This document shows, piece by piece, positions 13,405 through 36,246 of a stretch of 59,673 bases of DNA. The first letter of the stretch is position 1, and each line of letters starts with the position of its first letter. The notes below the pieces were generated by a model, which searched no databases, was not told where the DNA came from, and was given only the letters and a program-made list of their open reading frames with translations. Origin of the DNA: Candidatus Nanosyncoccus sp. (GTDB lineage: Bacteria > Patescibacteriota > Saccharimonadia > Saccharimonadales > Saccharimonadaceae); the NCBI GenBank assembly GCA_045545815.1, contig JAZQBP010000008.1, positions 1-59,673 of the forward strand, in the 5' to 3' direction. A program made the translations under genes and the position numbers.

Positions 13405-14418
13405 TTACCTCAATTGGAATGCCTTTTGCAGCTCAAAGAGCTTCTTATTTGCCTTTTCATTGGCGTACTTTTCGCCAGTCTGCATCAGCTCATAAACTTC
13501 TTCGTCAGTAATCTTTGCCAACTTCTCATGGAAAGCAGTTAACATTTTTTCGACACTAGATGCGACCTGTTTTTTCAAATCACCATAGTTTGATTTGCCC
13601 TTCCATTCAGCCACAACTTCATCGAGAGGACGATCATTTACTAAAGCCTCGATCTGCAATAGATTAGATATTCCTGGACGTTCTTTCAAATCATAGTCAA
13701 TCTCGCCAAACGAATCCGTCGTAGCAGACATAATCTTCTTCGCAGCAGCCTTTGGGTCGTCCGTCATCATAATCTTCGAATTTACTGATTTCGCAGACTT
13801 ACTCATCTTCTTTTCCGGATTTACGAGGTCACGGATTCGGATTCCATCATCTGTCCCCATAAATTTAGCTTGTTCCACAGTCTTCTCCGGGATAGTAAAG
13901 ATCTCTTTATCAAACCTGTGATTTACTCTGATTGCAATATCACGTGTCAGCTCGATATGTTGGAATTGATCCTGGCCTACAGGAATATAATTCGCATCAA
14001 ACAACAAAATATCCGTAGCCATCAAGACCGGATAATCAAAGATGCCGACATTACACGAATCCTCGCCTTTCCCTTTTTCCTTGTATTGGATCATCCGACC
14101 AAGCTCACCCATAGTAGCAACGCAGTTTAGGATCCAGGTCATCTCTGAAGTGGCCGGCACGTAACTTTGACGATAGATGTGCACATTCGGCCGGACTTCT
14201 AACCCAGCTGCAAGATACATTTTAATCAGCATCAAAAGATTATCCTGCAAAGCACCATCCTGCTCAGCTATGATCGTGTGTAGATCAGCTACAAAAATAT
14301 TCACATGATTATCCTTAGAGTATTTATTTGCAAGACGCGTCATCGGCAGCAAAGCCCCCAAGAAATTACCCATAGTAAGTTCAGAATTAACTCGAATTCC
14401 AGTCAAGATTGTTTTCAT
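13405..14418 (-). CDS. trpS: Tryptophan--tRNA ligase
   Basis: TMGN (HIGH-equivalent), YPVLMATDILL, GQDQFQHIE, KMSKS. Confidence 0.95.
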   Translation of the reverse strand: MKTILTGIRVNSELTMGNFLGALLPMTRLANKYSKDNHVNIFVADLHTIIAEQDGALQDNLLMLIKMYLAAGLEVRPNVHIYRQSYVPATSEMTWILNCVATMGELGRMIQYKEKGKGEDSCNVGIFDYPVLMATDILLFDANYIPVGQDQFQHIELTRDIAIRVNHRFDKEIFTIPEKTVEQAKFMGTDDGIRIRDLVNPEKKMSKSAKSVNSKIMMTDDPKAAAKKIMSATTDSFGEIDYDLKERPGISNLLQIEALVNDRPLDEVVAEWKGKSNYGDLKKQVASSVEKMLTAFHEKLAKITDEEVYELMQTGEKYANEKANKKLFELQKAFQLR

Positions 14419-14540
14419 ATTTCCTCCAAAATCAAAATTAATAACTCAAGAATTAGGACTGTCGCCAATGTGGTAGAAAAGCTGAATCATATATTTTCAT
14501 ACTTTTATTTTACCATAGATTGTGTTAAAATAAAACAAAC

Positions 14541-14569
14541 GGGGTGCTAGCTCATTTGGTAGAGCGCTT
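14541..14569 (+). pseudogene. 5' fragment of the interrupted tRNA-Ala(GGC); attL
   Basis: GGGGTGCTAGCTCATTTGG+TAGAGCGCTT; joins through the 10-bp core to 48012-48068 to give a 76-nt tRNA with a paired acceptor stem. Confidence 0.9.
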
Positions 14570-14618
14570 ATACAGCACACCCCTGTAAGTAAATTACACA
14601 ATTTGACCAAGATTAATT

Positions 14619-14694
14619 GGGGTGTTAGCTCATCCGGTAGAGCGCAGCTATGGCATAGCTGAGGTGGCGAGTTCGAGTCTCGCACACTCCACCA
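14619..14694 (+). tRNA. Phage-borne tRNA-Ala(GGC)
   Basis: 76-nt cloverleaf, CAGCT-ATGGCAT-AGCTG, G3:U70 alanine identity pair, CCA end. Confidence 0.93.
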
Positions 14695-14706
14695 TTTAGC
14701 TTATTG

Positions 14707-14778
14707 AGATCTCGTTAGAAGAAATTCTAGCGAGATTTTTTGTTGTTAGAGCCGGTTTCATTCGAAGCCGGCTTTTTT
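14707..14778 (+). terminator. Two tandem intrinsic terminators after the phage tRNA
   Basis: atctcgttagaa/ttctagcgagat + T-run; agccggtttc/gaagccggct + T-run. Confidence 0.75.
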
Positions 14779-14786
14779 CTTTGATT

Positions 14787-14819
14787 GAGGTGACAAACTC
14801 CCAACATATTTGCCACCTC
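14787..14819 (+). promoter_or_regulatory. Early-leader hairpin, putative antisense RNA target
   Basis: GAGGTGACAAA/TTTGCCACCTC stem with CTCCCAACATA loop; complementary to 46189-46203 and 46248-46256. Confidence 0.65.
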
Positions 14820-14919
14820 TGAGAAGGCGAAAGTGTGGCGTGACGACGCTCAACGATTAATGAGGTCTCCGGCACTTAAAGCTTCACGAATATCAAATTA
14901 ATTGCAAAGGAGAAACGCA

Positions 14920-15009
14920 ATGGCAAAGAATATCAAAGTTAAGAAGATAGGTAGTAAGGCTAAAAAAATTCAGATCAGAATCCTGTCGCTACAGAACAGT
15001 CTGGCTTAG
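14920..15009 (+). CDS. 29-aa basic leader peptide (first early gene)
   Basis: AAGGAG RBS, MAKNIKVKKIGSKAKKIQIRILSLQNSLA*, stop overlaps next RBS. Confidence 0.55.
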   Translation: MAKNIKVKKIGSKAKKIQIRILSLQNSLA

Positions 15010-15016
15010 GAGGAGT

Positions 15017-15616
15017 ATGGCTAAGACTACTAAAGTAACGAAGATCGAGAAGCGATACAAGACGAAAGATGGTCAAGTAAAGACTCTCGAAATCAATTAT
15101 GCAAAGGTTGCAGACCGTTTGAATGAATTCCGTTCTGCTAATCCTCGCTCAAAGATTTCGGTTAAGTTCGCTTATAACGACAAAGGCGATCTCACCCATC
15201 ATGCGTACATTTGGAAAGACAAAACCGACTTCTATGACCTACTCAAATCTGGCGTAAGCGCAAAAGAGTCGCTTGAATCTGCGGACGCAGAAGGTTCTTC
15301 GTTGATGTATGCAGATAAAGTTAAGCAGGAAAAAGGTTTCGAGAAGAACGAAACGATTGCAATCGGTCGTGCTTTGGCAATACTCGGATATGCTGGTTCT
15401 GGCGAAATCGCATCAAGCGAAGAAATGGAAGAGTTCGAAGACTTCAAAAAGCAGAAAGTTGAAGATGCAAAAGCTGAGGCAATAAGCCAGCTCGCAAAGG
15501 CTAAGGATATGAAAGCTTTGTTGAAAGTTTGGCAAAGTCTCACTAAAGAGCAACAACTCGCAAAAGAAGTCCAAGCGAAAAAGAACGAGATGAAGGAGAT
15601 ATTTAATGCAAAATAA
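15017..15616 (+). CDS. Phage protein, probable single-strand annealing recombinase
   Basis: YAKVADRL...ETIAIGRALAILGY...ASSEEM pattern; sits upstream of YqaJ exonuclease and SSB. Confidence 0.55.
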   Translation: MAKTTKVTKIEKRYKTKDGQVKTLEINYAKVADRLNEFRSANPRSKISVKFAYNDKGDLTHHAYIWKDKTDFYDLLKSGVSAKESLESADAEGSSLMYADKVKQEKGFEKNETIAIGRALAILGYAGSGEIASSEEMEEFEDFKKQKVEDAKAEAISQLAKAKDMKALLKVWQSLTKEQQLAKEVQAKKNEMKEIFNAK

Positions 15617-15893
15617 AATTCCTAACGATTTCCTCGATTGCTGTATCGATAGTGAAACAGGCGAGGTTTACGATTCAGACTCAATTACCGAAGCTGTTCT
15701 TATAGAAACTGCTGAACTTGGTGATTTTGTTAACAGTGTCGTCTTCAGTGCGGTAAAAGCCGTAGTTGAGACTTATGTAGTTCCTGAAGCCGAAGAGTAT
15801 GCGAAAGACTATTTTGAGCCATCAGCTCGTGAAGAGGCAATGGCTGATATTCGTCGAGAAACGATGGAAAGGATAAAAAATGAAAGTTATTAA
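15606..15893 (+). CDS. Hypothetical acidic phage protein
   Basis: ORF with AGGAG RBS, overlaps both neighbours. Confidence 0.65.
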   Translation: MQNKIPNDFLDCCIDSETGEVYDSDSITEAVLIETAELGDFVNSVVFSAVKAVVETYVVPEAEEYAKDYFEPSAREEAMADIRRETMERIKNESY

Positions 15894-16671
15894 GCTACAG
15901 CAAAACTCGGATGAATGGCTAGAGTTTCGTAAAGGCAAGTCTGGTGGGTCAGAGTTCAAGAATCTTTGGATACCAGGTCTTCCATTAAAAGCAAAAATAA
16001 TTGAAAGACTCGAACAGGAAAATCCTTTATCGCCAGAGGATAAAAGATGTACCGTTCAAGAGCTTGCAGGGATGCTTGAGCCGAGTGAGCTTGCGGAACT
16101 CAAGTTAGAAGCTGAGCCAAAGAAACATTTTTATGAAATTGTTGCAGATCGTGTTGCTCGTCCTGTAACCCCAAATGACTACGAAGATAGATTAAATGGA
16201 GAACCGTTTACGATGATGGCTCGTGGTCACATTTTGGAACCTGAAGCCCTTAACGCTTTCGAAAACAGAACTGGGAAAAAACTCGATAAGGATTCTGTGG
16301 TATGGGTATCTGATTATGATCCGAACGCATATGTAAGCCCAGATGGCGCAATTACCGATAAGGATGGAAAAGTTCGAGAGGCTTGTGAGGTTAAATGCCT
16401 CTCCTCTGCCGAAGTTATTAAATGTTTTGACGAGAATCGTTATCCAAAAGACTACGAACCACAAGTTCTTAAGTATTTCATGGTCAATGAGGATCTGAAA
16501 ACACTCCATTTCATTATTTATACCGACCTTATTCCAGGACTAGAACTTCAGATATTCGATATTAACCGTAAAGATGTCGAAGAGAGATTGGCTGAGGCGA
16601 GAGCATTCGAGAAGGCGAGCCTCAAACGAATCGATGAACTTGCATCAAAAATTGAAGGATTAAGTTTCTGA
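15880..16671 (+). CDS. YqaJ-like (lambda Exo family) exonuclease
   Basis: QNSDEWLEFR, RGHILEPEA, SPDG, EVKC motifs. Confidence 0.85.
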   Translation: MKVIKLQQNSDEWLEFRKGKSGGSEFKNLWIPGLPLKAKIIERLEQENPLSPEDKRCTVQELAGMLEPSELAELKLEAEPKKHFYEIVADRVARPVTPNDYEDRLNGEPFTMMARGHILEPEALNAFENRTGKKLDKDSVVWVSDYDPNAYVSPDGAITDKDGKVREACEVKCLSSAEVIKCFDENRYPKDYEPQVLKYFMVNEDLKTLHFIIYTDLIPGLELQIFDINRKDVEERLAEARAFEKASLKRIDELASKIEGLSF

Positions 16672-16883
16672 TGAGTGACGGAAATCATAAAGGCAAAGGA
16701 CATGGAAAAGGAGGATTTGCTTCACAAAGAATAGGTAGCGATGGTCTAACCGGTCAACAACGAGCTAGGCTGGCAGGTCTAAAAGGTGCAATAGCTCATT
16801 CAATAAAAGTCTACGGACATTCAGAGGAGGAATACGAAGAACTATGGCAGAAAAAAGTGTCTTCAATAAAATCGGAACATTAA
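16671..16883 (+). CDS. Small KGG-repeat-like protein
   Basis: GKGGFAS...ARLAGLKG motif. Confidence 0.55.
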   Translation: MSDGNHKGKGHGKGGFASQRIGSDGLTGQQRARLAGLKGAIAHSIKVYGHSEEEYEELWQKKVSSIKSEH

Positions 16884-17122
16884 AAGTTAAGAACGGCACA
16901 TATAAGAAAGATGGCGTCGAGAAGAACAGTTATCACGAGGTAGGTGTTCTTCTCTCCTCGCCACATGGCTCAAGGCTTCTGATTAAGCTTCATGCAACTG
17001 CTACGACGGAACCGAAACTTATCTCGGTTTTCTACGACGAAGGAGTTGGTTTGAGTCTAAACAGAAGCGAGCCAGAAAGAGAGGGGGATGTCGTTCCGAG
17101 TCCGGATGAAATTCCTTTCTAG
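16844..17122 (+). CDS. Putative single-stranded DNA-binding protein
   Basis: Short beta-rich ORF ending in the SSB-type acidic tip DEIPF. Confidence 0.65.
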   Translation: MAEKSVFNKIGTLKVKNGTYKKDGVEKNSYHEVGVLLSSPHGSRLLIKLHATATTEPKLISVFYDEGVGLSLNRSEPEREGDVVPSPDEIPF

Positions 17123-17129
17123 TTAATCA

Positions 17130-17346
17130 TCGGCTCTTTAACATTGATGGACTGGTTACTTGCGCAATGCGCTATTGATAAGGTCACACAAAATTGCCTA
17201 GTAACTTGATTCGTGGCTGGAAGAGTTAGCATAAGTGTTCGTAATTCAATGTTCAATATTTTCTCTTCTTTATATGTAGCCAGCCCATCTATGTTCGAGA
17301 GTCGACTTTGGTTGTTATCTACTAATGAGCTGTCGTTGGTAGATAA
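17130..17346 (+). ncRNA. Putative structured RNA (long stem enclosing ~115 nt, then a 14-bp hairpin)
   Basis: 17130-17159 pairs with 17276-17305; 17315-17328 pairs with 17333-17346. Confidence 0.45.
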
Positions 17347-17382
17347 GAGCTAAAGCTCTAACAAGTAATAAAGGAGGTAATA

Positions 17383-17571
17383 ATGAACGACAAACTTGGG
17401 GGTGCTATGACAAATGAGCAATGGGAGCGTATTCGTGATGAGCTGGAAATCATCAAGAATACAGCAGATTACGGCATCGATTGCGTCGATAGCTTGTGTG
17501 AGCTTAAGGAGATCATGGCAGATATTAAACGAAGCTATGGAATTATCTTGCATATAACCAATGAAAAATAA
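17383..17571 (+). CDS. Hypothetical phage protein
   Basis: Strong AAGGAGGT RBS, 62 aa. Confidence 0.6.
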   Translation: MNDKLGGAMTNEQWERIRDELEIIKNTADYGIDCVDSLCELKEIMADIKRSYGIILHITNEK

Positions 17572-17688
17572 GTATGGCAACAGAATAAACTTCTGTCTCT
17601 CGGTCTGCCGGTAATTTAGCCATTGCATAACTCCACACTTATTCTTTGTTTTACCGGCAGCCCAAGGGTTCTTTCTATGGAGGTAAAT

Positions 17689-17967
17689 ATGAAAGTTAAT
17701 ACGAATGATATGAGGCATAAGATTCTGGACGCAGTGCGATTACATCCAGAAGCAGTCAATAGTGACAAATTATTAATCTCGCTTATATGGGAGAAGGAGG
17801 GTTGGACTTACAATAAAGGAATCCTCTGGAATCTGCATCATGTGTCGAGTCCTGAGACCATTCGCCGAACTCGCCAAAAACTAGTTGAAGAAGGGTTAAT
17901 TAAACCATGCGAGGAAACGACCGAGGCACGGTACGAAGATTTTAAGCAAGCAAGGATGGTGCTATGA
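17689..17967 (+). CDS. Hypothetical phage protein (possible winged helix)
   Basis: GGAGGT RBS; SPETIRRTRQKLVEEGLI helix motif; coupled to next gene. Confidence 0.6.
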   Translation: MKVNTNDMRHKILDAVRLHPEAVNSDKLLISLIWEKEGWTYNKGILWNLHHVSSPETIRRTRQKLVEEGLIKPCEETTEARYEDFKQARMVL

Positions 17968-19127
17968 GCGAGTCGCTAAAAGTCCTTGAATTGTTTGCTG
18001 GAATTGGCGCTTGTTCGAAAGCTCTAGATCGCTTAAAAATACCACATACAATAGTTGATGCCGTCGAGATTGATAAGTATGCGATTAGAAGCTTTAATGC
18101 TATCCACGGTACGAGTTTTGAGCCACAGGATATTACTAAATGGGATAAAGATGTTAGTGCCGATCTTATTATGCATGGATCGCCGTGCCAGGATTTTTCT
18201 GTTGCCGGTAGACAAGCAGGTGGCGATGAAGGCAGTGGCACTCGTTCGAGCTTGATGTATGAAACGCTTCGAATTGTAGACAAACTACATCCTAAATATG
18301 TTATCTGGGAGAATGTCAAGAATCTGCTTTCTAAGAAACATCGACATAATTTCGACGCCTATATTGAATCAATGAAGCGACTTGGATATATTAATTCGTT
18401 CCAAATTCTCAATGCAAAAGACTATGGAATTCCTCAGAACCGTGAGCGTGTATTTACGGTAAGCATCCGTGAGGATATTTGGGATAAAGCGTATAATAAT
18501 TTCAATCAATTTAATTTTCCGAAACCTATAGAGCTAAAAAGAAAGCCCAAAGATATACTTGAAGACGAAGTTGACGAAAAATACTTTATTTCCGAAAACA
18601 TGATGAATTACTTTATGGGCGTGAATCAGAAACCCAGTAAATTTCCACGCAAAGAAAGATTTATAGCGAATATTAATCGTAAAGATCAAGATCGTGCCAA
18701 CTCGATTACTACTGCGCCTGGGCAAAGACCAACGGACAACTTCGTAAAGGTTAATATGAAAACGGTTTTATGCAACAAACTTGTAAAAGAGAGTATTGTA
18801 AAAGGCGGTGAAATAATTAATCACTCATATACTACAAGCAAACAGCGAGATACTCTCGATAAATACATAGAGAGCGACGATGGTATTATGCCTACTATGA
18901 CTACTAGACCTGACTGCTTAGGTTATGCAACTCTCCCTCCAGACGTAAGAATCCGTAAATTAACACCAAAAGAATGTTGGAGGCTGATGGGATTCGATGA
19001 CGCCGACCTGGAAAAAGCACAAGCTTCTGGGGTCTCGAATGCACAGCTCTACAAGCAGGCTGGCAATTCTATCGTGGTTGATGTTCTTGTTGCTATTTTC
19101 GAAGAGTTATTATTGGGGAGAGTTTAG
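17964..19127 (+). CDS. Solitary phage C5-cytosine DNA methyltransferase
   Basis: ELFAGIG, GSPCQDFS, ENV, QNRER, YKQAGNS. Confidence 0.93.
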   Translation: MSESLKVLELFAGIGACSKALDRLKIPHTIVDAVEIDKYAIRSFNAIHGTSFEPQDITKWDKDVSADLIMHGSPCQDFSVAGRQAGGDEGSGTRSSLMYETLRIVDKLHPKYVIWENVKNLLSKKHRHNFDAYIESMKRLGYINSFQILNAKDYGIPQNRERVFTVSIREDIWDKAYNNFNQFNFPKPIELKRKPKDILEDEVDEKYFISENMMNYFMGVNQKPSKFPRKERFIANINRKDQDRANSITTAPGQRPTDNFVKVNMKTVLCNKLVKESIVKGGEIINHSYTTSKQRDTLDKYIESDDGIMPTMTTRPDCLGYATLPPDVRIRKLTPKECWRLMGFDDADLEKAQASGVSNAQLYKQAGNSIVVDVLVAIFEELLLGRV

Positions 19128-19766
19128 GCTTATACCTGTTTTTGTAAAACCGCCATCAAGTGCCTTGTAGAGGTAGCGAGCAACTATGGAAGAGTATGGT
19201 TTCCACTTTTCTGAATCCGCTATTAGCTCTGCTTTATCTCGTGTACCGGACATCCATTCGTAGCCTTGCAAAAAAGCAACATCTTCGACCGGCAAGATAT
19301 TTTGTCTATCAAGAACAAATATAAGATACATTTTTGCAGACCAATCTCCAATGCCCCTAATTTTTTTTAATTCCTTTATTGCATCGTCATCGCTCAAGTT
19401 GTTAATTTTTTTCAAATCGATGCTTCCATCTAGAATACCATCCGTAAAGCTTCTAATATAACCTAACTTCTGGGCAGATACGCCTGCATTTCGTATTTCT
19501 TCGTCAAATAATAAATTAATGTTGTCTGGGCATACATTATCGTTGCATAATGACTCAATGCGTTTGTAAATCGTAGCAGAGGCTTTGTTTGATAACATTT
19601 GACCAATAAATGTTGAAATAAAAAAAATATAATCATCCGAATAAAGCGAATACTCTATATCTCCGATTTTTCGACATATTAAGTCAAATCTTTTGTCTTT
19701 TTTCCGGATATGATCCACTCTTTTGTCGTTTATAGACAATAATTTATGACCGTTTCTCAGACTCAT
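19110..19766 (-). CDS. AlkA-family (HhH-GPD) DNA-3-methyladenine glycosylase
   Basis: IGQMLS, LKKIRGIGDWSAKMYLIF HhH motif, LPVED, WKPYSS. Confidence 0.88.
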   Translation of the reverse strand: MSLRNGHKLLSINDKRVDHIRKKDKRFDLICRKIGDIEYSLYSDDYIFFISTFIGQMLSNKASATIYKRIESLCNDNVCPDNINLLFDEEIRNAGVSAQKLGYIRSFTDGILDGSIDLKKINNLSDDDAIKELKKIRGIGDWSAKMYLIFVLDRQNILPVEDVAFLQGYEWMSGTRDKAELIADSEKWKPYSSIVARYLYKALDGGFTKTGISLNSPQ

Positions 19767-20506
19767 ATTTTTAACTCTGATATTTTATGCATCGACCCTG
19801 ATTGTATGTAATAATTGTCGGCATCCATGGGTGTTGTGCCGTTCAACATATCACCCTTGCGAATTATATGATTATTTCGAATTATCTCTATTAACTCATC
19901 GTTAGTTACAAATCCGGCTATATCATATTTCCAGTCTTGTCCTAATAATATCTCCTCTAGCCTTGCTTTTTCTATTGTATCTGTATATAGGAGTCGGCTT
20001 TTTCTTAATATGTCTTCGCAATACGGATCCATCCTGATCAAAAATGTAAAATCGTATGATTTATCATTCGGTAAATATCTTCCGTTGTTATCCCAGTCTT
20101 TCGTTTCTAGCAGAAGCAGGTTTCCGAAAGCCTTTGTTGACTTAATTGAGATAGACTTTCCTTTTACTTCAATGTCGACATCATCCCATTTTCCTAACTC
20201 ATATACGCTAAAGTCTGGATAGGATGGTTCATAGCCAATTCTGACTAATTCGTTGTAGAGTGCGCACTCTGCAAGCTTGCCTTGAAATGTGTTTGCAAAA
20301 ATCTCACCATTGCGCCTAATATGAGTTCCGCCACTTCGATGATTTCTATGCTCGCCAGATCCAGCAAAAGTCATATTGTAAGAGAAATCCAAAACCTTAA
20401 TAATTGTGGCTTGTTTTAGGTTGCCAATCGGAGAAAAAGGTCTTTTCGAATTTATAAATAGCCCGTTGGCTTTTCTGTCCATTTCCAAGAATAAATCAGT
20501 TGCCAT
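19763..20506 (-). CDS. Putative PD-(D/E)xK endonuclease
   Basis: GKLAE...WDDVDI...SIKS pattern; cotranscribed with R-M genes. Confidence 0.55.
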   Translation of the reverse strand: MATDLFLEMDRKANGLFINSKRPFSPIGNLKQATIIKVLDFSYNMTFAGSGEHRNHRSGGTHIRRNGEIFANTFQGKLAECALYNELVRIGYEPSYPDFSVYELGKWDDVDIEVKGKSISIKSTKAFGNLLLLETKDWDNNGRYLPNDKSYDFTFLIRMDPYCEDILRKSRLLYTDTIEKARLEEILLGQDWKYDIAGFVTNDELIEIIRNNHIIRKGDMLNGTTPMDADNYYIQSGSMHKISELKI

Positions 20507-20524
20507 GGGTCAAGTATCCTTAAA

Positions 20525-21076
20525 TTAGACTAAATGTATCGTCTTGTCTGGCGTATAGCCATTTTTTTCAATGATTTCTTTTTTGATCGAAAAACGAGGA
20601 CGGCGTCCTTGCCTTTGTTGATCCGCAAAGGTTTCATTTTTGCTAGCACACAAAACTATATTGCGCACGTCTTCTTTAATTTCATAAATATCAACTTGAC
20701 CATCTACTGTGCCGTTTGGGCAAAAATCCATAAAGAAGAGTTTATCCCATGTTGAATGAGGCCCAAATGAAGTGAGGTCATTAACAATGGATGTAGATTT
20801 CACCTGAACGCCAGATCCATCCGCAACATCGACTGCATCATAAGAGCCAGCACCAGCTTCATTTCCGTTGGTGCGAATAGCATCATAACAATAACAATAA
20901 AGAGCCTCAGACACTACATCTGGAACATTCAGTGTTCTGCCATTAAGTGCCTTGAGGTCTTTATTGATTGCTAGCCATTTTTGAAAGATGTTTTTTATTT
21001 TTTCGAAATCGGTCTCATCAAAGTAATCACCGATTGCGGTTGCACCTGATTTGAGTTTTACTTCTAGTTTTCTCAT
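20525..21076 (-). CDS. Bsp6I-family type II restriction endonuclease
   Basis: RTLNVPDVVSE, YDA..QVKS, DLTSFGP, DQQRQGRRPRFSI recalled as the Bsp6I family; adjacent C5 MTase. Confidence 0.8.
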   Translation of the reverse strand: MRKLEVKLKSGATAIGDYFDETDFEKIKNIFQKWLAINKDLKALNGRTLNVPDVVSEALYCYCYDAIRTNGNEAGAGSYDAVDVADGSGVQVKSTSIVNDLTSFGPHSTWDKLFFMDFCPNGTVDGQVDIYEIKEDVRNIVLCASKNETFADQQRQGRRPRFSIKKEIIEKNGYTPDKTIHLV

Positions 21077-21143
21077 AATACATCTGCCTTATATTATGAA
21101 GTCAATTATACCAGCAGATGCATATTTTGAACAGGTCTGACAG

Positions 21144-22091
21144 CTAGGAGTCGAGAGCCTTTTTAATGTTTTTGGCAATCCTTGCAATTACCGGCACTGA
21201 GACTGAGTTGCCAGCTTGCTTGTATAGTGCAGCATCCGAAATCTTCGGAAGCTGATAGTCCTTAGGAAAGCCCTGGACACTAAAGCACTCTCTTGGAGTA
21301 AGTTTGCGAATCCCTTTACCATCAAATATGATCGGAACATTATGTCCGCCAGTACCCATGTTGGCTGTCAGCGTAGGGCATACGCCACTCTTATTACGGC
21401 GAACATACTGTCTGCGCCATTGATATACTTCACCTTGCTCTGTAATTTCGTCCTTAATTCTGTCGTAAAGTGGCTTACCGTTATAATAGTATTTTTCTGG
21501 GATTTCGCCGGTTTCGAGAATATCCGTTATGTTTACGGTTCTTTCAATAGGTTTTGGAAATTCGAACTTGTCTAGCTTTTCTTTATCTTTGAAGCCGACA
21601 ATATAGATACGCTCACGATTCTGCGGAACATTGCCATATTCCATAGAGTTTAGAACTTCAGCTTTGATATGATAACCGAGGTTTTCGAGTGTCTCTTTAA
21701 TTACTTTGAAAGTATTACCACCGTCATGGCTCTTGAGGTTCTTAACATTCTCAAGCATAAAGCCAACAGGTTGCTTTTCTTTGATAATTCTAGCTACATC
21801 TAAGAATAGGTTTCCTCTACCTTTCTCATCATCAAAGCCTTTACGATAACCGGCGATCGAGAAAGCCTGACAAGGAAAGCCACCAACCACAAAGTCACAA
21901 TCAGGAATGTCCTTCTCGTTTACTTTAGTTATATCTGCTACTGTTAGGGCATCTTTGCCAAAGTTTAGGTCGTATGTATTGGCGCACTTTGGCTCGAAAT
22001 CGTTCGCCCAAACAGTCTTGAATCCTGCTTGTTCGAAGCCGAGTCTGATGCCACCAACACCTGCGAACAGGTCTATGGTTCTTATGGGCAT
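21144..22091 (-). CDS. Cognate C5-cytosine methyltransferase of the R-M system
   Basis: DLFAGVGG, GFPCQAFS, ENV, QNRER, YKQAGNS. Confidence 0.93.
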   Translation of the reverse strand: MPIRTIDLFAGVGGIRLGFEQAGFKTVWANDFEPKCANTYDLNFGKDALTVADITKVNEKDIPDCDFVVGGFPCQAFSIAGYRKGFDDEKGRGNLFLDVARIIKEKQPVGFMLENVKNLKSHDGGNTFKVIKETLENLGYHIKAEVLNSMEYGNVPQNRERIYIVGFKDKEKLDKFEFPKPIERTVNITDILETGEIPEKYYYNGKPLYDRIKDEITEQGEVYQWRRQYVRRNKSGVCPTLTANMGTGGHNVPIIFDGKGIRKLTPRECFSVQGFPKDYQLPKISDAALYKQAGNSVSVPVIARIAKNIKKALDS

Positions 22092-22363
22092 TTTGTATTA
22101 CTCCACTTAGTTAATAGTACCTACTATTATACCACCAAAATCATACTTATGCTTGCCGGAATAATTCATTAAGCCGTATTTTATATCAATAAACAACGAA
22201 AGGAGAATAGTATATGATATATCCACTAGAAATAATTAGAAAACATATCATTATGCATCGCCTTAATAAGCGATATAAACTTAAACAATAACGCGGTATA
22301 ATATAAGTAGGCTATCAGTTTGAGGCAATCTGGTTAAATAGCCTCCTTAGTTTATGCTTATTA

Positions 22364-22419
22364 TGATATAATATAATTAATATCAATAGCGTCTAGAACT
22401 ATGTTCTGGGCGTTTTTTG
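22364..22419 (+). promoter_or_regulatory. Late promoter-terminator leader, copy 1 (lysis/distal tail unit)
   Basis: TGATATAATATAA..TCAATAGCG-stem-GGCGTTTTTTG, repeated at 39466-39520 and 45519-45573. Confidence 0.8.
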
Positions 22420-22436
22420 TTGTTAAAGGAATCACG

Positions 22437-22763
22437 ATGAATGAACAGATCCTAAATGCAATCCATAGTCTAGTTACAGCCCTTATTCCGGCGATTGTAA
22501 CTATTGTCACCTATGTTTGTCAGTCTAGTCAAGCAAAAAGGCATGCCGCTAAACAATCAATATTGCAGATGATTATGGAAGACCAATTAAATTGGGAACT
22601 ATTTCATAAGTTTCCTACTAATTGGGGTGATATTCAAAATGAGTATGCCATCTATCACAAGAACGGTGGCAATGGAGAGGTTACCAAGCGTGTCAATGAT
22701 TATAACGATTGGTATCTAGGTGTCGAGAAAAGCCTAGTCAATTCTAAAGGAGGTAAGCAATGA
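22437..22763 (+). CDS. Membrane-anchored lysis-cassette protein
   Basis: N-terminal hydrophobic helix, YHKNGGNG motif seen in phage holin-adjacent proteins. Confidence 0.6.
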   Translation: MNEQILNAIHSLVTALIPAIVTIVTYVCQSSQAKRHAAKQSILQMIMEDQLNWELFHKFPTNWGDIQNEYAIYHKNGGNGEVTKRVNDYNDWYLGVEKSLVNSKGGKQ

Positions 22764-22984
22764 AACTCAGCAAGAAGACGACAAGACAATTATCAATAGC
22801 CGTAGGTTTACTATCTTTTGCGGCATTTATTGTGCAAGGACTCGGATCAACATGGGGATTTGAGGAAGTGGCTAAACAAATTACGCAGACAGCTCTCCTC
22901 TTCTCTGGTGGTATTAATATTTACTTCTTGGGTGTGACGAACCAAAAGAATAATCAGGACAAGGAGAAATCGAATGATAAATAA
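22760..22984 (+). CDS. Putative holin
   Basis: 74 aa, two hydrophobic segments, charged tail, directly upstream of the lysin. Confidence 0.65.
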   Translation: MKLSKKTTRQLSIAVGLLSFAAFIVQGLGSTWGFEEVAKQITQTALLFSGGINIYFLGVTNQKNNQDKEKSNDK

Positions 22985-23888
22985 GATCGAGAAATGGTTT
23001 AGCAATCACATCGCATTCTTTGTTGTTCTTGGTGTAGTGCTATTGTGTACTGCATTTATTCTTTGTGGCTCTGTAGCTGAAAATGGAAGCATCACGCTAG
23101 ATGGCAAAAATGCCATGATCGAGAAATACACCGATGATTTCATCAAAGATGCAAATACTCGTCTTGAAGAGATGATGAACTATGAGCCTGCAACGGACGA
23201 AGAAACCATCAAGGCAAACGACCAAGAAGAAGTCGGTCTTGGTTTTTCGACTTCTATTGACCAAATTATCGCTCGCAGATTACCGGATGGCGATAACGAT
23301 AGTGGTAAAGGATGGCAATGTTCGAAATATACAGCATACCTTGCGACAGGTCGTAGGGAGTATTCGACCGCTCACCCAGATTATGGTCCTGTAAATGGAA
23401 AAGACATTGCATCGTGGCTTGTTAGGAACTATGGTTTCAAATATATCGACCAGCCAGTCAAAGGCGCTATTGGCTCAGGTGGATTTAATACTCAATATGG
23501 TCACACTGTGATGTATCTATATGCCACTGGCACGAATACTGCTATGGTAAACGATGCGAATTACTCTCCACTTAAGGTAGCAACTCACAATATGAATATA
23601 AGTGGTTACAAATGGGTGGTTCCTGGTGATTACACGCCACAGCCGACTCCAGAACCTACACCAGAACCAGTAGCCTCTTGTGATGTTATCAATGTTGTTA
23701 AAGGCGATACTTTAGGTGCAATTATGAAAAAGTGTGAAGGTTATGTTCAGTATGGCGTAGCAATGGATGAATATGCAAAGACTTGGTACTCGACAAAAGT
23801 TAAGCCAGGTCAATCGGTCTACGATGGATGGCATTCAAATACAGGTGTTGGGCTTTATGCTGGAGACACAATCGAAAGGCGAAAATAA
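22974..23888 (+). CDS. CHAP-domain endolysin with N-terminal membrane segment and LysM-like C-terminus
   Basis: WQCSKY (Cys), YGHT (His), DANY; PTPEPTPEP linker; VVKGDTLGAI. Confidence 0.8.
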   Translation: MINKIEKWFSNHIAFFVVLGVVLLCTAFILCGSVAENGSITLDGKNAMIEKYTDDFIKDANTRLEEMMNYEPATDEETIKANDQEEVGLGFSTSIDQIIARRLPDGDNDSGKGWQCSKYTAYLATGRREYSTAHPDYGPVNGKDIASWLVRNYGFKYIDQPVKGAIGSGGFNTQYGHTVMYLYATGTNTAMVNDANYSPLKVATHNMNISGYKWVVPGDYTPQPTPEPTPEPVASCDVINVVKGDTLGAIMKKCEGYVQYGVAMDEYAKTWYSTKVKPGQSVYDGWHSNTGVGLYAGDTIERRK

Positions 23889-24259
23889 TGGCTTATTCTG
23901 GCGACTTATTGAAGATTAACGGCAATACGATCCATGGGCTTTCTTGCTATAAAATCGGATACAACAAACTATGGAAAGATGCTGACCGTAACATGAATGG
24001 CGATGTTCGTGCCACACTCATTGGTATTTTCCCTAAAATTGAGCTAACTTTCCGTGATGCTTTGACCGAAAATGAAATTAGTCAAATTATAGCTTTGTTA
24101 GATTTACCTTATTTCGATGTTACTTATTTTTCTCCAAAAGTTAAGAATACAGTAACTGCTAGATATTATGCTGGAGACTACGAACCAGAACTTCTCGATA
24201 AATCCAGAGGCCTATACAAAACTTTTACGGTCTCGTTAGTGCCTGTGAGCAAGTTGTGA
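23888..24259 (+). CDS. Putative distal tail protein
   Basis: LKING...LWKDADRNMNGDV...YFSP...FTVSLV pattern of siphophage distal tail proteins. Confidence 0.65.
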   Translation: MAYSGDLLKINGNTIHGLSCYKIGYNKLWKDADRNMNGDVRATLIGIFPKIELTFRDALTENEISQIIALLDLPYFDVTYFSPKVKNTVTARYYAGDYEPELLDKSRGLYKTFTVSLVPVSKL

Positions 24260-24268
24260 GGTGGCTGA

Positions 24269-26224
24269 ATGATTGAAGTATCAGGAACATTCAAACAAGC
24301 CATGAGAGAACCTGTTAAGGTGATCAAAGCCATCATTACAGGCGAAGTTGAGTCTTATTCGTCATCCGACACCCTTATGTCTTTTACGGTCGAGTCTGCT
24401 GGGTATTATTTTCGATCTGCGACCAAAGCATTGTCATTTAAGCTACTCGGCAACGACTATAACCTTATAGGAGAGACAGTCGGTGTCACATTGAGTGTTT
24501 GTGCTAATAGCGCTCAAGATTTGTGGGAAGACTGTTATCTTGGGAGCTTCAAAATCTACGAGCAGAAATCTGATATCGAAAAAGGGTTCACCACATTCAC
24601 GGCTTACGACAAGATTGGTCAGATGGCGACTCAAAAATATGACTCAAATATCACCTTTCCTACTACTGTTGAGAACCTTGTTATTCAAATAGCCGCAAAG
24701 TTTAATCTTGTCTATGAGACGCATTCTTTAGTTAATGGTAATTATTTAATATCTGAGGACTTGTATGCACGAATTAATGATATTACTTATCGTGATATTC
24801 TCTCTGAGATAGCCGGTGCTACTGCTTCTCTTATTGTTGTTGATGGCGTAACTGATACCCTGAGAATTGTTGCACCGCCGTTAGAATCATCTGAAACGCT
24901 TACATATGATAACCTTAAAAAATACTCGATTAAGCCTAAATATGGTCCTGTTAATAGTGTTGTTTTGGCTAGAACACCTCAGGAGGATAACATTGCCGTT
25001 GTCGACAATGAAAGTGTCGAATTGTATGGATTGACCGAATTGAAGCTTGCGAACAATGAGATTCTTGATGATGATAGGGAGTTACTTGCACATCCAATAC
25101 TCGACGCAGTTGATGGTTTTGAATGGTATCCTTTCGAAGCAGATACGGAAGGTCATGGCTGGTATGAAGTTGGCGATATGATTACCGTGACTGATGGTAA
25201 TAATTCTTGGGATGTGATTATTACAGACATAAAGCTAAGCGTTGATGGTGGCATTAAAGAAACAATCAAGGGCGTAATGCCGACAGAAACTCAGACAGAT
25301 TACGCACTAGCCGGTGGTATTACTAAGACCATCTATAACACTCAAATTAAAGTCGACAAGCAAAATCAAGAGATTCAATCGATAGTCCAAGAGATGACAT
25401 CTCTCGAAGGGCAAGTAAATGATAACTATACGGAAATTCATCAGACTATTAATAATGTCGTTACATCGGTTCAAAATTCTGGTGGTAATAATCTTATTAA
25501 GAACTCGGCGATGTATTCGATAAACTCTGATACTCAATTGCCTGACAGTTGGAGTTTTTCTAGTGGTGGAGATTTGATTGTCCAACCATCAGCCGAGGCT
25601 ACGGTGTATGGTTCTTTGTCTGGACAAGCCATTTCATTAATTGGCAAGAAGGCGATTCAAAATATCGCAGTTAGCGCAGACGATGCCTCCATCCCAGAGA
25701 GTTCTAAGATCTATTATTCTTTCTCTTGTCGTATTAAGAAAACTGCAACAGGCACTTGCTATGTAAAAATCACGGATGGCACTGAGCATGGTGTATGGTC
25801 GATAGATCTCGATAACGGTGATTCATCAACTTGGGAAGATTATAGTATTGAGAGCATTTTGCCTATGTCGACTCAGTTGACAATTGAAGTGTTTGGCTCA
25901 TCCGATTCCGAATTTTCGATCACCGACATGATGTTGGCTGTCGGCAATTATCGTTCTAACTGGTCTCAAGCTAATGGTGAATTCGCAAATACGCAAGTAG
26001 CTATTGATACGACAGGCGTAAAGATTACAAACTCAAACCTCCACGGATCATATAGCAAGTTAGATTCGCAAGGTTTGATTATATTCGACAGTAATTCTGA
26101 GAGTAGTTTCATTAACAATGATGGTGTTCATACAAAAAGTATTTCTGCAGAAAATGAAATAGATATGCCACCACTAAAAATAGTGCCACAATCTGATGGC
26201 TGGGCGTTCGTGCCAAAGGAGTAA
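24269..26224 (+). CDS. Tail/baseplate hub protein
   Basis: 651 aa with EVGDMITV, coiled coil, GGNNLIKNS; between distal tail and fibre genes. Confidence 0.7.
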   Translation: MIEVSGTFKQAMREPVKVIKAIITGEVESYSSSDTLMSFTVESAGYYFRSATKALSFKLLGNDYNLIGETVGVTLSVCANSAQDLWEDCYLGSFKIYEQKSDIEKGFTTFTAYDKIGQMATQKYDSNITFPTTVENLVIQIAAKFNLVYETHSLVNGNYLISEDLYARINDITYRDILSEIAGATASLIVVDGVTDTLRIVAPPLESSETLTYDNLKKYSIKPKYGPVNSVVLARTPQEDNIAVVDNESVELYGLTELKLANNEILDDDRELLAHPILDAVDGFEWYPFEADTEGHGWYEVGDMITVTDGNNSWDVIITDIKLSVDGGIKETIKGVMPTETQTDYALAGGITKTIYNTQIKVDKQNQEIQSIVQEMTSLEGQVNDNYTEIHQTINNVVTSVQNSGGNNLIKNSAMYSINSDTQLPDSWSFSSGGDLIVQPSAEATVYGSLSGQAISLIGKKAIQNIAVSADDASIPESSKIYYSFSCRIKKTATGTCYVKITDGTEHGVWSIDLDNGDSSTWEDYSIESILPMSTQLTIEVFGSSDSEFSITDMMLAVGNYRSNWSQANGEFANTQVAIDTTGVKITNSNLHGSYSKLDSQGLIIFDSNSESSFINNDGVHTKSISAENEIDMPPLKIVPQSDGWAFVPKE

Positions 26225-26225
26225 A

Positions 26226-28568
26226 ATGAGTTGGGTTACAGTAGCATCAATTGATACAGGTGGATATGGTTACACTAGATTGCAATATGACGACGCTTCT
26301 ACTGGCGAAAGCCGTAGTTCAAGGGTTATTTTTGAGCTTAAGCCTGGTGCTAGTATCTATGTCTATTTCAATAATTTTACTGTTAATGGTACGAATCTTG
26401 GGCAGAAAACGGTTTCTGGAAACTGCACTTTATGGACTGGTTCGTTGCCGGCTGGTAATAGAACAGTTTCGTATACATGTCCTTGGTATTCTGGATCGGT
26501 GAACTATTCCGGAACTGGCTATATCCCAAGTGGATATTCGAACCCTACTGGTCTATCCGTTTCGATTGCTAGTAAGACATATAATTCGGCGTCTTTTAAT
26601 GTGTCCGTGTCGTCCTATGGAACTCCAAGCTCTGCAAATGGTCGTTATATTGAGGCTGCAATTCTTAATAGTAGTAGCTATGGAAATCCGTATCGTTATG
26701 CAACGGCGTCAAATACTACATCGTCTAAGATTACTGTCAATAATAGTTCTGCGCAAGGTTCTACTGCATTTACGATTACTGGAAACACAACATATCACTA
26801 TGGTGCATATGCGAGCAATACTCAAAGAAGTATTAGTACCGTTGCTGGTACATTTACAACATTATGCCCACCACTCTCTGCTCTTACATTCTCAAGCCAA
26901 TCCTATAGGACATACAACACGGTCAACGCAGTAATCAACTGGACTCGTCAGACCGATGGTGGTGCTTTGGCGAGAACTCTTAATTATAGATACTCTACCG
27001 ATGGTGGTTCAACTTATACTGCTTGGACTTCGGCTGGTACTGTTACGGCTACAAGTAGCTCATTTACTGTTTCTGGAATCCCAACCAGTAAGACCGTTAT
27101 TCTTGAAGCCAAATTGACAACAACTGCCGGCGACTCGACAGCTAAAACAGTTACCTTCACCACAAAAACAACCCATACAGCACCCAACTTTAGTAATTTC
27201 GAATATGCCGATACGAATAGCAGTACGATTGCATTGACTGGCGATAATACGACTCTGATTCAAGGTCAATCGACGCCTGTCGTTACAGTATCGACAAATA
27301 ATAAAGCTACTGGAAACGATGGTGTGGCGATATCTAATTATGCCATTTCTTTTAGTGGCAACTCTTATACGCTTGGATATTCTTCTTCTAGCGCAGTATC
27401 TCAGACATTGTCGGCACCAAGTCAAAATGGCACGCTCGCATTAAAAGTGTCTGCCGTCGATGAGCTATCTCTATCTACTGCAGTTTCTAAGGACGTAACC
27501 GTATATCCTTGGTCTGCGCCTACTGTTGTAGCGAGCGTAGAAAGAACTAATGGATTCGAGGCTGAGACGACATTAAAAGTTCATGGTACATACGCACCGA
27601 TTATCGTTAATAATACGGCTAAGAATACAGTTACGGTTCAATTCCGTACAAAGAAATCTTCGGAATCTAACTGGGGGAATTGGCAGACTAGATCGAATAC
27701 CAAATCTGGTAGCAACTGGTCTATCCAAGATTATGTAATTACATTGGACAACAATTATCAATGGGATATTCAAGTTAAAGCTACTGATAAGTTTTCATCT
27801 ACTGTTGTTGACCTTATACTAACCGTTGGTATTCCGAAATTCTTTATTGGCGAAGATGGCAGATGTTCAGTTGGTAGAAAGCCACAAGTCGATAAAGGTC
27901 AGAATAATGGTCAATTAGAGGTCGAAGGAGACATAATCTCCTCTGGTAGTGTGTATGCACATAATACAGCAAAGCTCTTAGAGGAGAACGAATTAGGTGG
28001 GCTGTTACCAAATATCTTTTTGCAAAAAATCTATCCTATTGGTTCAATTTATCGAAGTACGACGAATAAATCACCACAACAGTTTCTTGGTGGCACTTGG
28101 ACTCTTGAGTGGTCTGGCAAAGAATATATTGAAGTAGCCTCACAAGTCTTATATTATGGTTCGACTAGGAGTGGCTCAGGAACAACTAAGGTAATCGGCG
28201 CATATCAGTATAGCTTGATTGATGGTATTTTCGATAAAGCACCAACTATGCCATCTAGCTTTCATCAAGAATACCAGTTGTCTGGTCAAGTATCGTCGAG
28301 TGGATCTAATAGTGTAAGAATAAGATTGAATAACATACAAACCGACAATAAAGGAACATGGTCTTCTGATACTTTTAGGCAAATTGTTAAATCAAATTTC
28401 TTCAAGAAAGAAGATATTACTTTAGAAACGACTTTAGGGTATAGTAATCCTGGCATAAATCTGGGTGTAGTAAACGATGGAAATGGCGATGCGAGGATGT
28501 GGTCTGCTACGATTCACGGCTTCTATGTAAGCAATAATACATATTATATCTGGAGAAGAACAGCTTAA
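26226..28568 (+). CDS. Tail fibre/receptor-binding protein (currently fused to cassette A)
   Basis: Ser/Thr-rich beta repeats; C-terminal YPIGSIY...GGTW...YIWRRTA module. Confidence 0.8.
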   Translation: MSWVTVASIDTGGYGYTRLQYDDASTGESRSSRVIFELKPGASIYVYFNNFTVNGTNLGQKTVSGNCTLWTGSLPAGNRTVSYTCPWYSGSVNYSGTGYIPSGYSNPTGLSVSIASKTYNSASFNVSVSSYGTPSSANGRYIEAAILNSSSYGNPYRYATASNTTSSKITVNNSSAQGSTAFTITGNTTYHYGAYASNTQRSISTVAGTFTTLCPPLSALTFSSQSYRTYNTVNAVINWTRQTDGGALARTLNYRYSTDGGSTYTAWTSAGTVTATSSSFTVSGIPTSKTVILEAKLTTTAGDSTAKTVTFTTKTTHTAPNFSNFEYADTNSSTIALTGDNTTLIQGQSTPVVTVSTNNKATGNDGVAISNYAISFSGNSYTLGYSSSSAVSQTLSAPSQNGTLALKVSAVDELSLSTAVSKDVTVYPWSAPTVVASVERTNGFEAETTLKVHGTYAPIIVNNTAKNTVTVQFRTKKSSESNWGNWQTRSNTKSGSNWSIQDYVITLDNNYQWDIQVKATDKFSSTVVDLILTVGIPKFFIGEDGRCSVGRKPQVDKGQNNGQLEVEGDIISSGSVYAHNTAKLLEENELGGLLPNIFLQKIYPIGSIYRSTTNKSPQQFLGGTWTLEWSGKEYIEVASQVLYYGSTRSGSGTTKVIGAYQYSLIDGIFDKAPTMPSSFHQEYQLSGQVSSSGSNSVRIRLNNIQTDNKGTWSSDTFRQIVKSNFFKKEDITLETTLGYSNPGINLGVVNDGNGDARMWSATIHGFYVSNNTYYIWRRTA
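27955..27977. repeat. Outer inverted repeat, left (perfect 23 bp)
   Basis: ATGCACATAATACAGCAAAGCTC; exact reverse complement at 29201-29223. Confidence 0.95.
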
Positions 28569-28788
28569 GACCGTAACATTGACGCTTGAGCAAATTCCGA
28601 GCCATAAACACCCCATTCCATATCGTACTGATACAAATATTACTGGTGGCTCGACTGGACAATGGACAACTGATCCAGGTACATCGTCTGGCTCTTCTGA
28701 CTCTAAAGCTATTGCCGTAGGTGGCGGTAAGGCTCATAACAACCTCCAGCCATACATTACATGCTATATGTGGAGACGTACTAACTAA
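28566..28788 (+). other. Silent tail-fibre tip cassette C (begins with inner inverted repeat 28566-28605)
   Basis: KTVTLTLEQIPSHKH...AHNNLQPYITCYMWRRTN*; no RBS; first 40 bp 35/40 identical to reverse complement of 28979-29018. Confidence 0.75.
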
Positions 28789-29223
28789 TTCTACGCCACA
28801 TATAAACTGTTAGGTATGGAGGCATATTTTGGTGTGCCTCTCCGTTTCCGGACGACTGTACAGTAAATGGTGGTGAGTATGTCTCTCCATAGAATGTGCC
28901 ACCTCCGTTTCCAGCCGATGTGCCACTAGTATTGTTGTATGGCACACCATAGGGTACTTTCTTTTCTAGACCATGAGAATGGCTCGGCATTTGCTTAACC
29001 GTCAATACTACGGTCTTACTACCTCCACTCTTATTTGATGCATTGAAATCTGTATCGTTAGGATCGACGCCAACAGGCACTTTGCCAGCGCCCCAAGCTT
29101 GCCATGTGCCTCCGAGGAAAGATTGTGGCGAAACATTATTTACGCTCATGTAAATTGAGCCTACTGGATAGACGTAAGTAAGTAAATCGCTCTTCGAGAT
29201 GAGCTTTGCTGTATTATGTGCAT
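28781..29223 (-). other. Silent inverted tail-fibre C-terminal cassette B
   Basis: AHNTAKLISKSDLLTYVYPVGSIY...YMWRRIS*; starts in the outer repeat in the same reading phase (AHNTAKL) as the fibre gene. Confidence 0.85.
29201..29223. repeat. Outer inverted repeat, right
   Basis: GAGCTTTGCTGTATTATGTGCAT. Confidence 0.95.
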
Positions 29224-29294
29224 TATCATGTAGCTTATGGATAAAAGAAAGCTGTTTTTTGTAAATATTAAGCAATATAATTGCGTAGGATTAA

Positions 29295-32200: not shown

Positions 32201-32477
32201 TATAGATATGTTTTCCCGATGCGGCAAAAATACCCCCAAGAGACATCTCAGAAAGAGCTACCAAGTCCTCGTAAGTGACAAATAATGTATCATTATGTTT
32301 TACTATTTCTGATAAAAGATCGGTCACATCAGGTTTTTCTATCTTAATCTCTTTCGAAAAAAGAAAATTGCCGGATAACTCCGACAACCATTTGTTAAAA
32401 CCTTTCAAGACAACGATCGTATTAGGATCAGAAATAGAATTAATCTGTTTTACGATGAGTTGCTTAAGTGTTTCCAT
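29295..32477 (-). CDS. RecQ-like DEAH helicase with long N- and C-terminal extensions (moron)
   Basis: APTGAGKS, SPLIGLMNDQ, VDEAH, WGKSFRPDY, ATKAFGMGID, QEIGRAAR; own TGTTATAAT just upstream. Confidence 0.88.
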   Translation of the reverse strand: METLKQLIVKQINSISDPNTIVVLKGFNKWLSELSGNFLFSKEIKIEKPDVTDLLSEIVKHNDTLFVTYEDLVALSEMSLGGIFAASGKHIYILDNDFYTTFYPSSFSLEEYEDLKTKHDAERDLYIQQLYGDIEEYNENVYIAYNDIPITYGNTNFETVQISKLIDGSLVEDSNEEVAVIPDEYDLIVLSDVLTSVIENGIGKISVLDDSLQTDKNIIALKDKLERAGVKMISRSYSAGGNKVNPDFYKEYLDILHRKNPDYSFRTLKLYKNPYDDNELVDVEQSVIIDDIVQNAIKAKDLEPFRDVFVTAPTGAGKSVMFQIPAIYLAEKYNLVTLVISPLIGLMNDQVQNIKSMTHLAATINSDYTPTEKENTLESIKKGDKSILYLSPEALLSNTDITSLIGERNIGLIVVDEAHIVATWGKSFRPDYWYLGDFINRLRNNAKSDYKFPIVTFTATSTFGGEDNMYHDIIESLKMTPNKYIGNVRREDINFDIRCHNKDHDYQNEKLEKATDSINKLCETGDKTLVYVPYTKHVDDLLHRMDNPEKAGRYYGGLAAGEKNETLKCISEGTKNVVIATKAFGMGIDIDDIKYVYHFAPTGNIADYVQEIGRAARRPDMIGVASTDFFKEDFRYIRQLYGMSSIKNWQVVATLRKIHQLYNTYGKRNFLVSPEDFSFIFADARPEDLDAKIKTTLLMIRKDFESDPHSNYPPVVFKPRSMFTLGYFMVNDEMIPGLKQFGYMKYFKKLDLPRTYTEATKSSRASDAIVTVPGDIYQLDYKSLWEHHYRDISFSMFKHLFFTNELKDFNFKVGEKIINRIILEVDAGKRSLNSVRDDLFSFLDTMEDIFADLKQSNKFFSSSELAQILIKKGCVKKKYIADVVAGAFIPMLERIAPYRNSLFQNNFSEYNSKYDKTIIKTVSYEPRIKNLKYAINHFIFGDRHKASRYVSSKESTDIIVVQLIEMLELARCTTTAGENPEFFIRVNNAYAIEKVINNADYVSRTVANVARKHSESCILMQHFFTELHADIARWDFIEKYFLGKISRSEIEQMRDAQKKA

Positions 32478-32518
32478 ATATATATTATAACACTTTTTAA
32501 GATTACTGAAAGCTTAAG

Positions 32519-35744: not shown

Positions 35745-35806
35745 AGGTTATTCCTCGTTAAATTTGCTAGGTGGGAGCATTTAACCTCTGCTCCCAAGAG
35801 GAGAAA

Positions 35807-36229: not shown

Positions 36230-36246
36230 AATTTGTTCTCCTTACA

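Follow-up and report, generated by a model that had tools for sequence, protein, structure and literature searches.

A Saccharibacteria prophage that splits a host tRNA-Ala(GGC) gene, probably in the D-stem, and carries a whole replacement

The window considered here, namely the whole 59,673-nucleotide stretch of contig JAZQBP010000008.1 (assembly GCA_045545815.1, a Candidatus Nanosyncoccus sp.; genome G000 below), contains two widely separated pieces of a tRNA-Ala(GGC) gene, each attached to a copy of the same 10-bp core, with a second, complete tRNA-Ala(GGC) gene close to the left copy and a prophage filling the interval (Table 1). The prophage is a temperate phage of Saccharibacteria, and its host is an ultra-small bacterium of the gut type. 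Besides the genes tabulated, the prophage interior encodes a recombination exonuclease, and colinear complete prophages are present, each on one contig, in two further genomes of the genus (G178 and G142). The cargo at 17964-22091 and 29295-32477 comprises two C5 DNA methylases, a Bsp6I-like restriction enzyme, an HhH-GPD glycosylase and a 1060-aa helicase inserted among tail genes.

Table 1. Features of the prophage, its attachment junctions and flanking DNA (window coordinates)
Feature	Position	Strand	Remarks
TrpS (tryptophanyl-tRNA synthetase), host, left flank	13405..14418	-	Pfam PF00579; divergent from tRNA
Extended -10 promoter-like motif, host tRNA gene	14523..14531	+	9 nt before 14541
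attL: 5' 19 nt of host tRNA-Ala(GGC) plus core 14560-14569	14541..14569	+	exchange predicted within 14561-14567
Prophage, 33.45 kb	14560..48021	.	siphophage-type gene set; DNA methylase, restriction and helicase cargo
Phage spacer, 49 nt	14570..14618	+	conserved in related attL and attP
Phage-borne complete tRNA-Ala(GGC)	14619..14694	+	Rfam tRNA 58.1 bits; sole intact copy in assembly
Two terminator-like hairpins 3' of replacement tRNA	14706..14775	+	2 found, shuffle mean 0.3
Tape measure, tail tube, connectors, major head, scaffold, portal, terminase	32519..44409	-	
Tyrosine integrase, 306 aa, adjoining attR	46800..47720	+	PF00589; catalytic motifs intact; XerA/XerC/XerD size
Sigma-70-like phage promoter facing core	47791..47819	+	10/12 plus TG; kept in 9 aligned relatives
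P-arm element complementary to core and first spacer bases	47972..47989	+	closes long stem in attP only
attR: core plus 3' part of host tRNA-Ala(GGC), CCA end included	48012..48068	+	
Phage-like DNA outside attR: terminator region and membrane-protein gene	48069..48788	+	sequence matches

The best solved relatives of the integrase are XerA and XerD, with a match to IntI4 confined to the C-terminal part. Homologues of 91-99% identity occur in Candidatus Saccharibacteria, with one in Candidatus Nanosyncoccus; the best match in an annotated phage collection is below 30% identity. Around more distant integrases (40-49% identity), the 24 loci examined showed no clear tRNA 3' piece adjoining the gene. 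The host genome encodes a second tyrosine recombinase (C9:3259-4086), 41% identical to the prophage integrase, beside which no tRNA piece was found. Between the integrase stop and the core, conserved hairpins at 47727-47960, possibly a terminator and a structured leader, gave no Rfam match.

The core copies at 14560-14569 and 48012-48021 lie 33,452 bp apart. ARAGORN calls a 76-nt tRNA-Ala(GGC) on the computed join of 14541-14559 to 48012-48068, and calls nothing on attL alone or attR alone, even with a lowered threshold, which bears out both the coordinates of the rebuilt gene given in the preliminary description of this DNA and its claim that neither junction regenerates the tRNA. Rfam searches at attL and attR recovered tRNA only, the remaining matches falling under the gathering score. 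The rejoined gene differs at a single position from the intact allele of a relative; in relatives the intact tRNA-Ala(GGC) adjoins TrpS, and joining the flanks of the prophage restores the gene order seen in relatives that lack one, with TrpS upstream and a CotH-family gene downstream. The near-identical allele, the restored gene order and the phage genes between the cores together argue that the split host tRNA is not a product of chance. The core itself occurs five times in the 803-kb assembly, twice on the prophage contig. An identical 10-bp core is present in tRNA-Gly(GCC) (C24:5224-5300), yet all junctions seen are in Ala(GGC); hence, the flanking bases must set specificity.

The complete tRNA at 14619-14694 is separated from the core by 49 nt and has 16 mismatches to the rejoined gene over 76 positions, so that ARAGORN, Rfam and direct comparison all uphold the earlier statement that a whole, divergent tRNA-Ala(GGC) lies 49 nt inside attL. 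Among the 44 tRNA calls of the assembly (50 contigs, 95.6% complete, leaving room for a second copy) there is no other intact Ala(GGC); the host also has Ala(UGC) and Ala(CGC) elsewhere in the assembly. As read from the sequence, the prophage has split the only tRNA-Ala(GGC) gene found in its host and has left the halves unrepaired. Canonical integration, in which attP carries a terminal fragment that restores the gene, was rejected both by the junction calls and by two natural attP sites.

These natural sites are in two related viral contigs, L032 and L033, which hold the unintegrated site and encode integrases 94% and 81% identical to that of the prophage. Their shared order is integrase, P arm, core, the same spacer start, a whole tRNA-Ala(GGC), terminators and early genes, the last being those found to the right of attL in the lysogen. 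The tRNA beside attP in L033 is identical to 14619-14694. The attP predicted in the preliminary description is thus matched by natural sites, which belong to related phages and do not represent excision of this prophage. In sequencing run X1, one contig matches 14541-14665 with two differences and another matches 46500-48068; both continue into other DNA past the tRNA boundaries, and they appear to be a related phage in another host. In all seven attR junctions the host tRNA begins at the identical point.

The arrangement recurs within the genus. The attL pattern of a 5' fragment followed by a whole tRNA was found in 7 of 369 genomes, with no instance of the reversed control pattern. Six of these, in which phage DNA follows the tRNA, are lysogens (G000, G024, G123, G142, G178 and G237), where the G123 contig carries just the terminator region and the phage-side sequences of G024 and G142 are identical, so that these two may represent one phage; the seventh, G315, is a scar. 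Integrases at least 57% identical to that of the prophage are encoded by 6/369 genomes, and in all six a tRNA gene is split and replaced, five times Ala and once Lys. The five lysogens with both Ala ends all rejoin to tRNA-Ala(GGC), in three cases identical to the intact gene of another genome. Among the related attL compared, the 5' fragment varies with the host and the replacement tRNA follows the phage. In each of the six lysogens there is one intact Ala(GGC), namely the phage copy. Genome G011 shows the site of lysogen G237 in its empty state: the two are sisters on a TrpS tree, and G011 has the intact gene and DNA matching both flanks. The design is repeated at tRNA-Lys(CTT) in G169 (loci L184 and L044), with an 8-bp core and a replacement that is likewise Lys; the attR of this element is miscalled as a tRNA by ARAGORN at lowered threshold. 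Of 21 pattern matches in metagenomes, three are attL and one repeats L033; the other 17 were discarded as ordinary tRNA neighbours, chance or unclear matches.

The extent of shared sequence, 10 bp here, 8-11 bp across five Ala lysogens and, in the Lys element, 8 bp with position 27 as the last, delimits a part common to all shared cores, tRNA positions 21-27, which form the 3' strand of the D-stem and the junction to the anticodon stem. Strand exchange by the 306-aa integrase is accordingly placed, as a prediction, within these positions; the 7-bp common part fits the overlap of 6-8 bp cited for tyrosine integrases (PMC10865867). The replacement had been described as no exact target, which holds for its sequence at the core; positions 21-27 are nevertheless shared with the target, and two scars (G315 and G251) look like replacement-type alleles that have themselves been cut. 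Their dead 5' halves bear a D-loop found in replacement-type alleles only and in 0/150 of the T28 matches listed. Given the shared positions 21-27, the replacement allele probably lacks immunity to integration. Immunity through a change at position 28 was rejected: T28 is lacking from 11/11 phage-borne Ala tRNAs, but these fall into just two allele types, the core of the Lys element does not reach beyond 27, and the two scars derive from replacement-type D-loops. The absence of T28 may still lower self-targeting as a partial effect. The 78 bp from the core to the corresponding core of the replacement are, at a guess from minimum loop sizes, too short for self-recombination.

In attP the P-arm element, the core and the first six nucleotides of the spacer complete an imperfect inverted repeat that encloses the crossover, and this was seen in all seven Ala-type attP (two natural, five computed). 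The stem is more stable than expected in the natural L032 and L033 sites (z of -5.3 and -3.6 against dinucleotide shuffles) and in the five computed sites (z of -4.5 to -6.5 against mononucleotide shuffles). Across four sequence types, related to one another and compared in a register chosen as the best match, the outer nine pairs hold in 35/36 cells and two pairs are changed on both sides. The G-T pairs are on the top strand, and the core lies at differing distances (16, 32-33 or 55 nt). These features suggest a folded single strand, which might be either RNA of an attP transcript or DNA as in integron attC; co-evolving inverted binding sites could account for them as well. In the Lys element, a plain inverted repeat flanks the core instead.

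An extended -10 motif precedes the intact gene by 8-9 nt in 19 of 30 relatives, and none is present in the spacer, which lends support to the earlier suggestion that the phage tRNA is probably read from the host promoter. A stricter consensus scan that included a -35 box found no promoter in 14380-14960, the host promoter call being that of the -10 motif alone. The scan that gave the phage promoter found three sites against a shuffle mean of 2.0. Before integration, transcription of the tRNA would start at the phage promoter at 47791-47819; in the lysogen it would start at the host tRNA promoter and cross the dead 5' fragment first. The replacement tRNA would be trimmed out of such a transcript by the ordinary enzymes of tRNA processing, and the two terminators would stop host-driven read-through into the phage early genes. 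Within the spacer, 14577-14583 are complementary to the 5' acceptor strand of the tRNA, and in equilibrium folding of attL transcripts the spacer pairs with this strand in nine of nine cases, giving an acceptor-stem probability of about zero; hence, folding does not support correct maturation from a host-promoter transcript. During co-transcriptional folding, the dead 5' fragment could capture the anti-acceptor sequence of the spacer first. An integration-dependent RNA switch based on this sequence was rejected, as the energy gaps favoured attL inconsistently. A search among RNA sequencing runs found none containing this DNA.

It is likely through the tRNA-Ala carried 49 nt from the core that the lysogen stays supplied. 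A stricter reading is that the lysogen depends on the phage tRNA, and we regard this as fairly probable, since replacement and target match strictly (6/6 close integrase relatives within the genus carry a matching replacement), an Ala(GGC) match is kept in 336 of the 369 streamlined genomes, and the codons concerned are frequent (GCC plus GCT make up 8,905 of 15,672 Ala codons in long open frames, a rough count on both strands). The same three observations stand against the leading alternative, by which the tRNA is a fitness aid only, Ala(UGC) reads GCC and GCU well enough, and lysogens survive without the phage copy. A search of G000 for a CmoB-family gene found none (0/1; the control was found in 7/14), so U34 of Ala(UGC) may be unmodified. 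In some small bacteria unmodified U34 reads all four codons. This alternative gains further from Escherichia coli, where a strain lacking alaWX (GGC) is viable, with impaired growth (PMC11480407); on balance it appears rather unlikely, though a serious contender.

Outside lysogens, a replacement-type allele occupies the host locus, with no lysogen attL, in 24 genomes, five of them identical to the 14619 tRNA and 22 within two mismatches; the 30 T28 genomes compared hold 20 distinct alleles. Across the genus, intact Ala(GGC) with T28 occurs in 299/369 genomes and other alleles in 38, both being present in one genome. Relics of the phage spacer or terminator were found at 3/24 replacement-type loci versus 0/48 others. 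On a quick TrpS tree of 62 rows, the replacement-type allele requires 13 changes, at least six of them forced by well-supported branches; Ala(GGC) alone was mapped, sampling was enriched for the 21 replacement-type rows, and T28 alleles are scattered too. We lean slightly towards the view that hosts keep the phage tRNA after prophage loss, a form of domestication; scars of this kind are what a deletion running from the 3' part of the replacement to that of attR would leave as it cured the prophage. Phages must also have captured host alleles, the opposite course, and the two are indistinguishable here. The preliminary description had named the presence of the 14619 tRNA in prophage-free strains as evidence against its model. 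Taken literally, this was found, in the five genomes with an identical copy at the host locus; the model itself stands, because attP contigs carry the tRNA on the phage side.

Possible scars of the same kind occur at other tRNA genes. In genome G372 (C3:30872-30952; L190) two dead 5' halves are stacked before tRNA-Val(CAC), with no phage gene match nearby. In the present host, a tRNA-Met(CAT) on contig C39 (426-664, minus strand) is preceded, 78 nt away, by a perfect 26-nt duplicate of its 5' end and followed by a damaged 3' copy, an arrangement that looks like a similar scar. A general search for tandem D-arms gave six matches in 252 genomes, of which two were dropped for their whole-tRNA contexts. 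The broadest extrapolation, in which a family of Saccharibacteria integrases acts at a fourth tRNA subsite (D-stem, 21-27) and recombines an attP folded from a single strand, with the long stem lying across the crossover, and in which the cycle turns over host tRNA genes, with phage alleles persisting, spreading genus-wide and stacking dead 5' halves, is speculative and would have to be judged improbable at present.

The host-locus alleles bear on a further alternative, by which the 14619 tRNA is a host gene, 14541-14569 is the displaced 5' fragment of a 5'-restoring island and the piece at 48012 is an unrelated duplication. Replacement-type alleles at the host locus in 24 genomes free of the attL pattern are compatible with it, as are the 5'-side integration at D-loop sites that has been described (10.1101/2020.11.02.365908) and the 159 of 3,919 Islander islands that have a 5' fragment (PMC4383910). 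Against this, L032 and L033 have the tRNA on the phage side of the core with phage genes behind it, the 5' fragment stands behind the host promoter and differs from host to host while the tRNA goes with the phage, and the rejoined halves equal intact host genes. The two contigs refute this account unless both are misassembled, and we consider it very improbable. An assembly artefact, with short tRNA-allele repeats chimerically joining phage and host contigs, could be entertained for a 50-contig assembly in which no single public contig spans the stretch, but the two other complete prophages on single contigs, the several independent junctions and a 10-bp overlap too short to drive an assembly join leave it scarcely credible. 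Equally implausible is a working two-piece tRNA formed by both transcribed host halves annealing in trans: promoter-like sites do precede both (host at the 5' part, phage at attR), but both halves carry long stretches of foreign sequence, the D-stem strand of the 3' half is open to pairing with the P-arm element, and a two-piece tRNA would make the whole replacement unnecessary. The proposal as a whole, namely the split, supply by the replacement, promoter hand-over and later retention by hosts, remains the reading we hold to with good confidence.

The principle is already known. The preliminary description called a crossover at the D-arm/anticodon-stem junction with full replacement unusual; replacement is indeed observed here, but tRNA-dependent lysogeny had been published with genetics for actinobacteriophages by Guerrero-Bustamante and Hatfull in 2024 (PMC10865867), among them Fionnbharth (K4), Cluster L phages, Cain, Gaia, BrutonGaster and Mollymur. 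The likeness extends to a tyrosine integrase, an attB in a single-copy tRNA gene, a phage tRNA of the same isotype, junctions none of which rebuilds the tRNA, and a core of 8-17 bp there and 10 bp here. Five of the six features that define the phenomenon are recognizable in the present sequence; the sixth is that the host tRNA be essential and the phage tRNA required. The differences concern the host phylum (Saccharibacteria as opposed to the actinobacterial hosts there), the crossover in the 3' strand of the D-stem, set apart by description from the anticodon loop that is the common site there, the 306-aa integrase without the lambda-like arm-binding domain described there, and the position of the tRNA, which here is 49 nt away from the core and points the same way as the host promoter but in Fionnbharth is elsewhere and has a promoter of its own (PMC10865867). 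Outside Actinobacteria, the Lactobacillus johnsonii prophage Lj965 is cited in the same paper as leaving its tRNA not rebuilt and encoding a cognate tRNA.

Canonical islands in the Islander data set share with the present element a tyrosine integrase, a tRNA attB and a displaced fragment marking the end; their attP restores the gene, and their crossovers are assigned to three subsites, the anticodon loop, the T loop and the T/acceptor junction (PMC4383910), whereas the present element restores nothing and has its crossover placed at 21-27. The Klebsiella arg2/leu5 D-loop islands likewise have a site in the D-arm region, but it covers the 5' half with integration upstream, and the account of these islands consulted mentions no whole replacement (10.1101/2020.11.02.365908). 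Integron attC and CTXphi attP also contain an imperfect inverted repeat that makes the crossover double-stranded within one strand, with a variable loop length and a short tyrosine recombinase as here (PMC4792948); the present phage differs in being of the tailed dsDNA type, in that single-strand use is a candidate mechanism, and in the plain repeat of its Lys relative. Prophages of Saccharibacteria are known, 120 being reported in PMC10746230. In the open-access literature searched, we found no paper on tRNA-dependent lysogeny in Saccharibacteria or Patescibacteria, no D-stem split-and-replace site and no comparable attP stem. The points of difference from the published system are the Saccharibacteria host, the predicted D-stem crossover, the short integrase of XerC/D size, the presumed promoter hand-over and the conserved attP repeat.

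These observations extend tRNA-dependent lysogeny to the Patescibacteria, whose small genomes have mostly single-copy tRNAs, and add a crossover point beyond the three Islander subsites. Island finders that seek an intact tRNA plus an end fragment can mis-delimit such prophages. If hosts do keep the phage tRNA after prophage loss, phages would be a route for swapping core translation genes between species. The short integrase, the defined attP and the tRNA cassette are together a candidate tool for integration in a phylum where genetics is little developed.

Some further sequences in the vicinity and beyond deserve mention. The 720 bp outside attR (48069-48788) are 70% identical to 14638-14796, 71% to 45614-46248 in inverted orientation and 89% to the DNA that follows the tRNA in L033, and may be the relic of an older related prophage from an earlier round; the membrane-protein gene there is 71% identical to the prophage gene at 45613-46089. 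Further right, 49033-49106 (plus strand) resembles tRNA-Arg(TCT) but is degenerate, its D arm damaged, and scores 25.8 bits in Rfam, under the cut-off; an intact Arg(TCT) is on contig C13. In metagenomic loci L080 and L085, from another organism, a decayed tRNA-Ala 5' part lies about 75 nt before an intact Ala(GGC).
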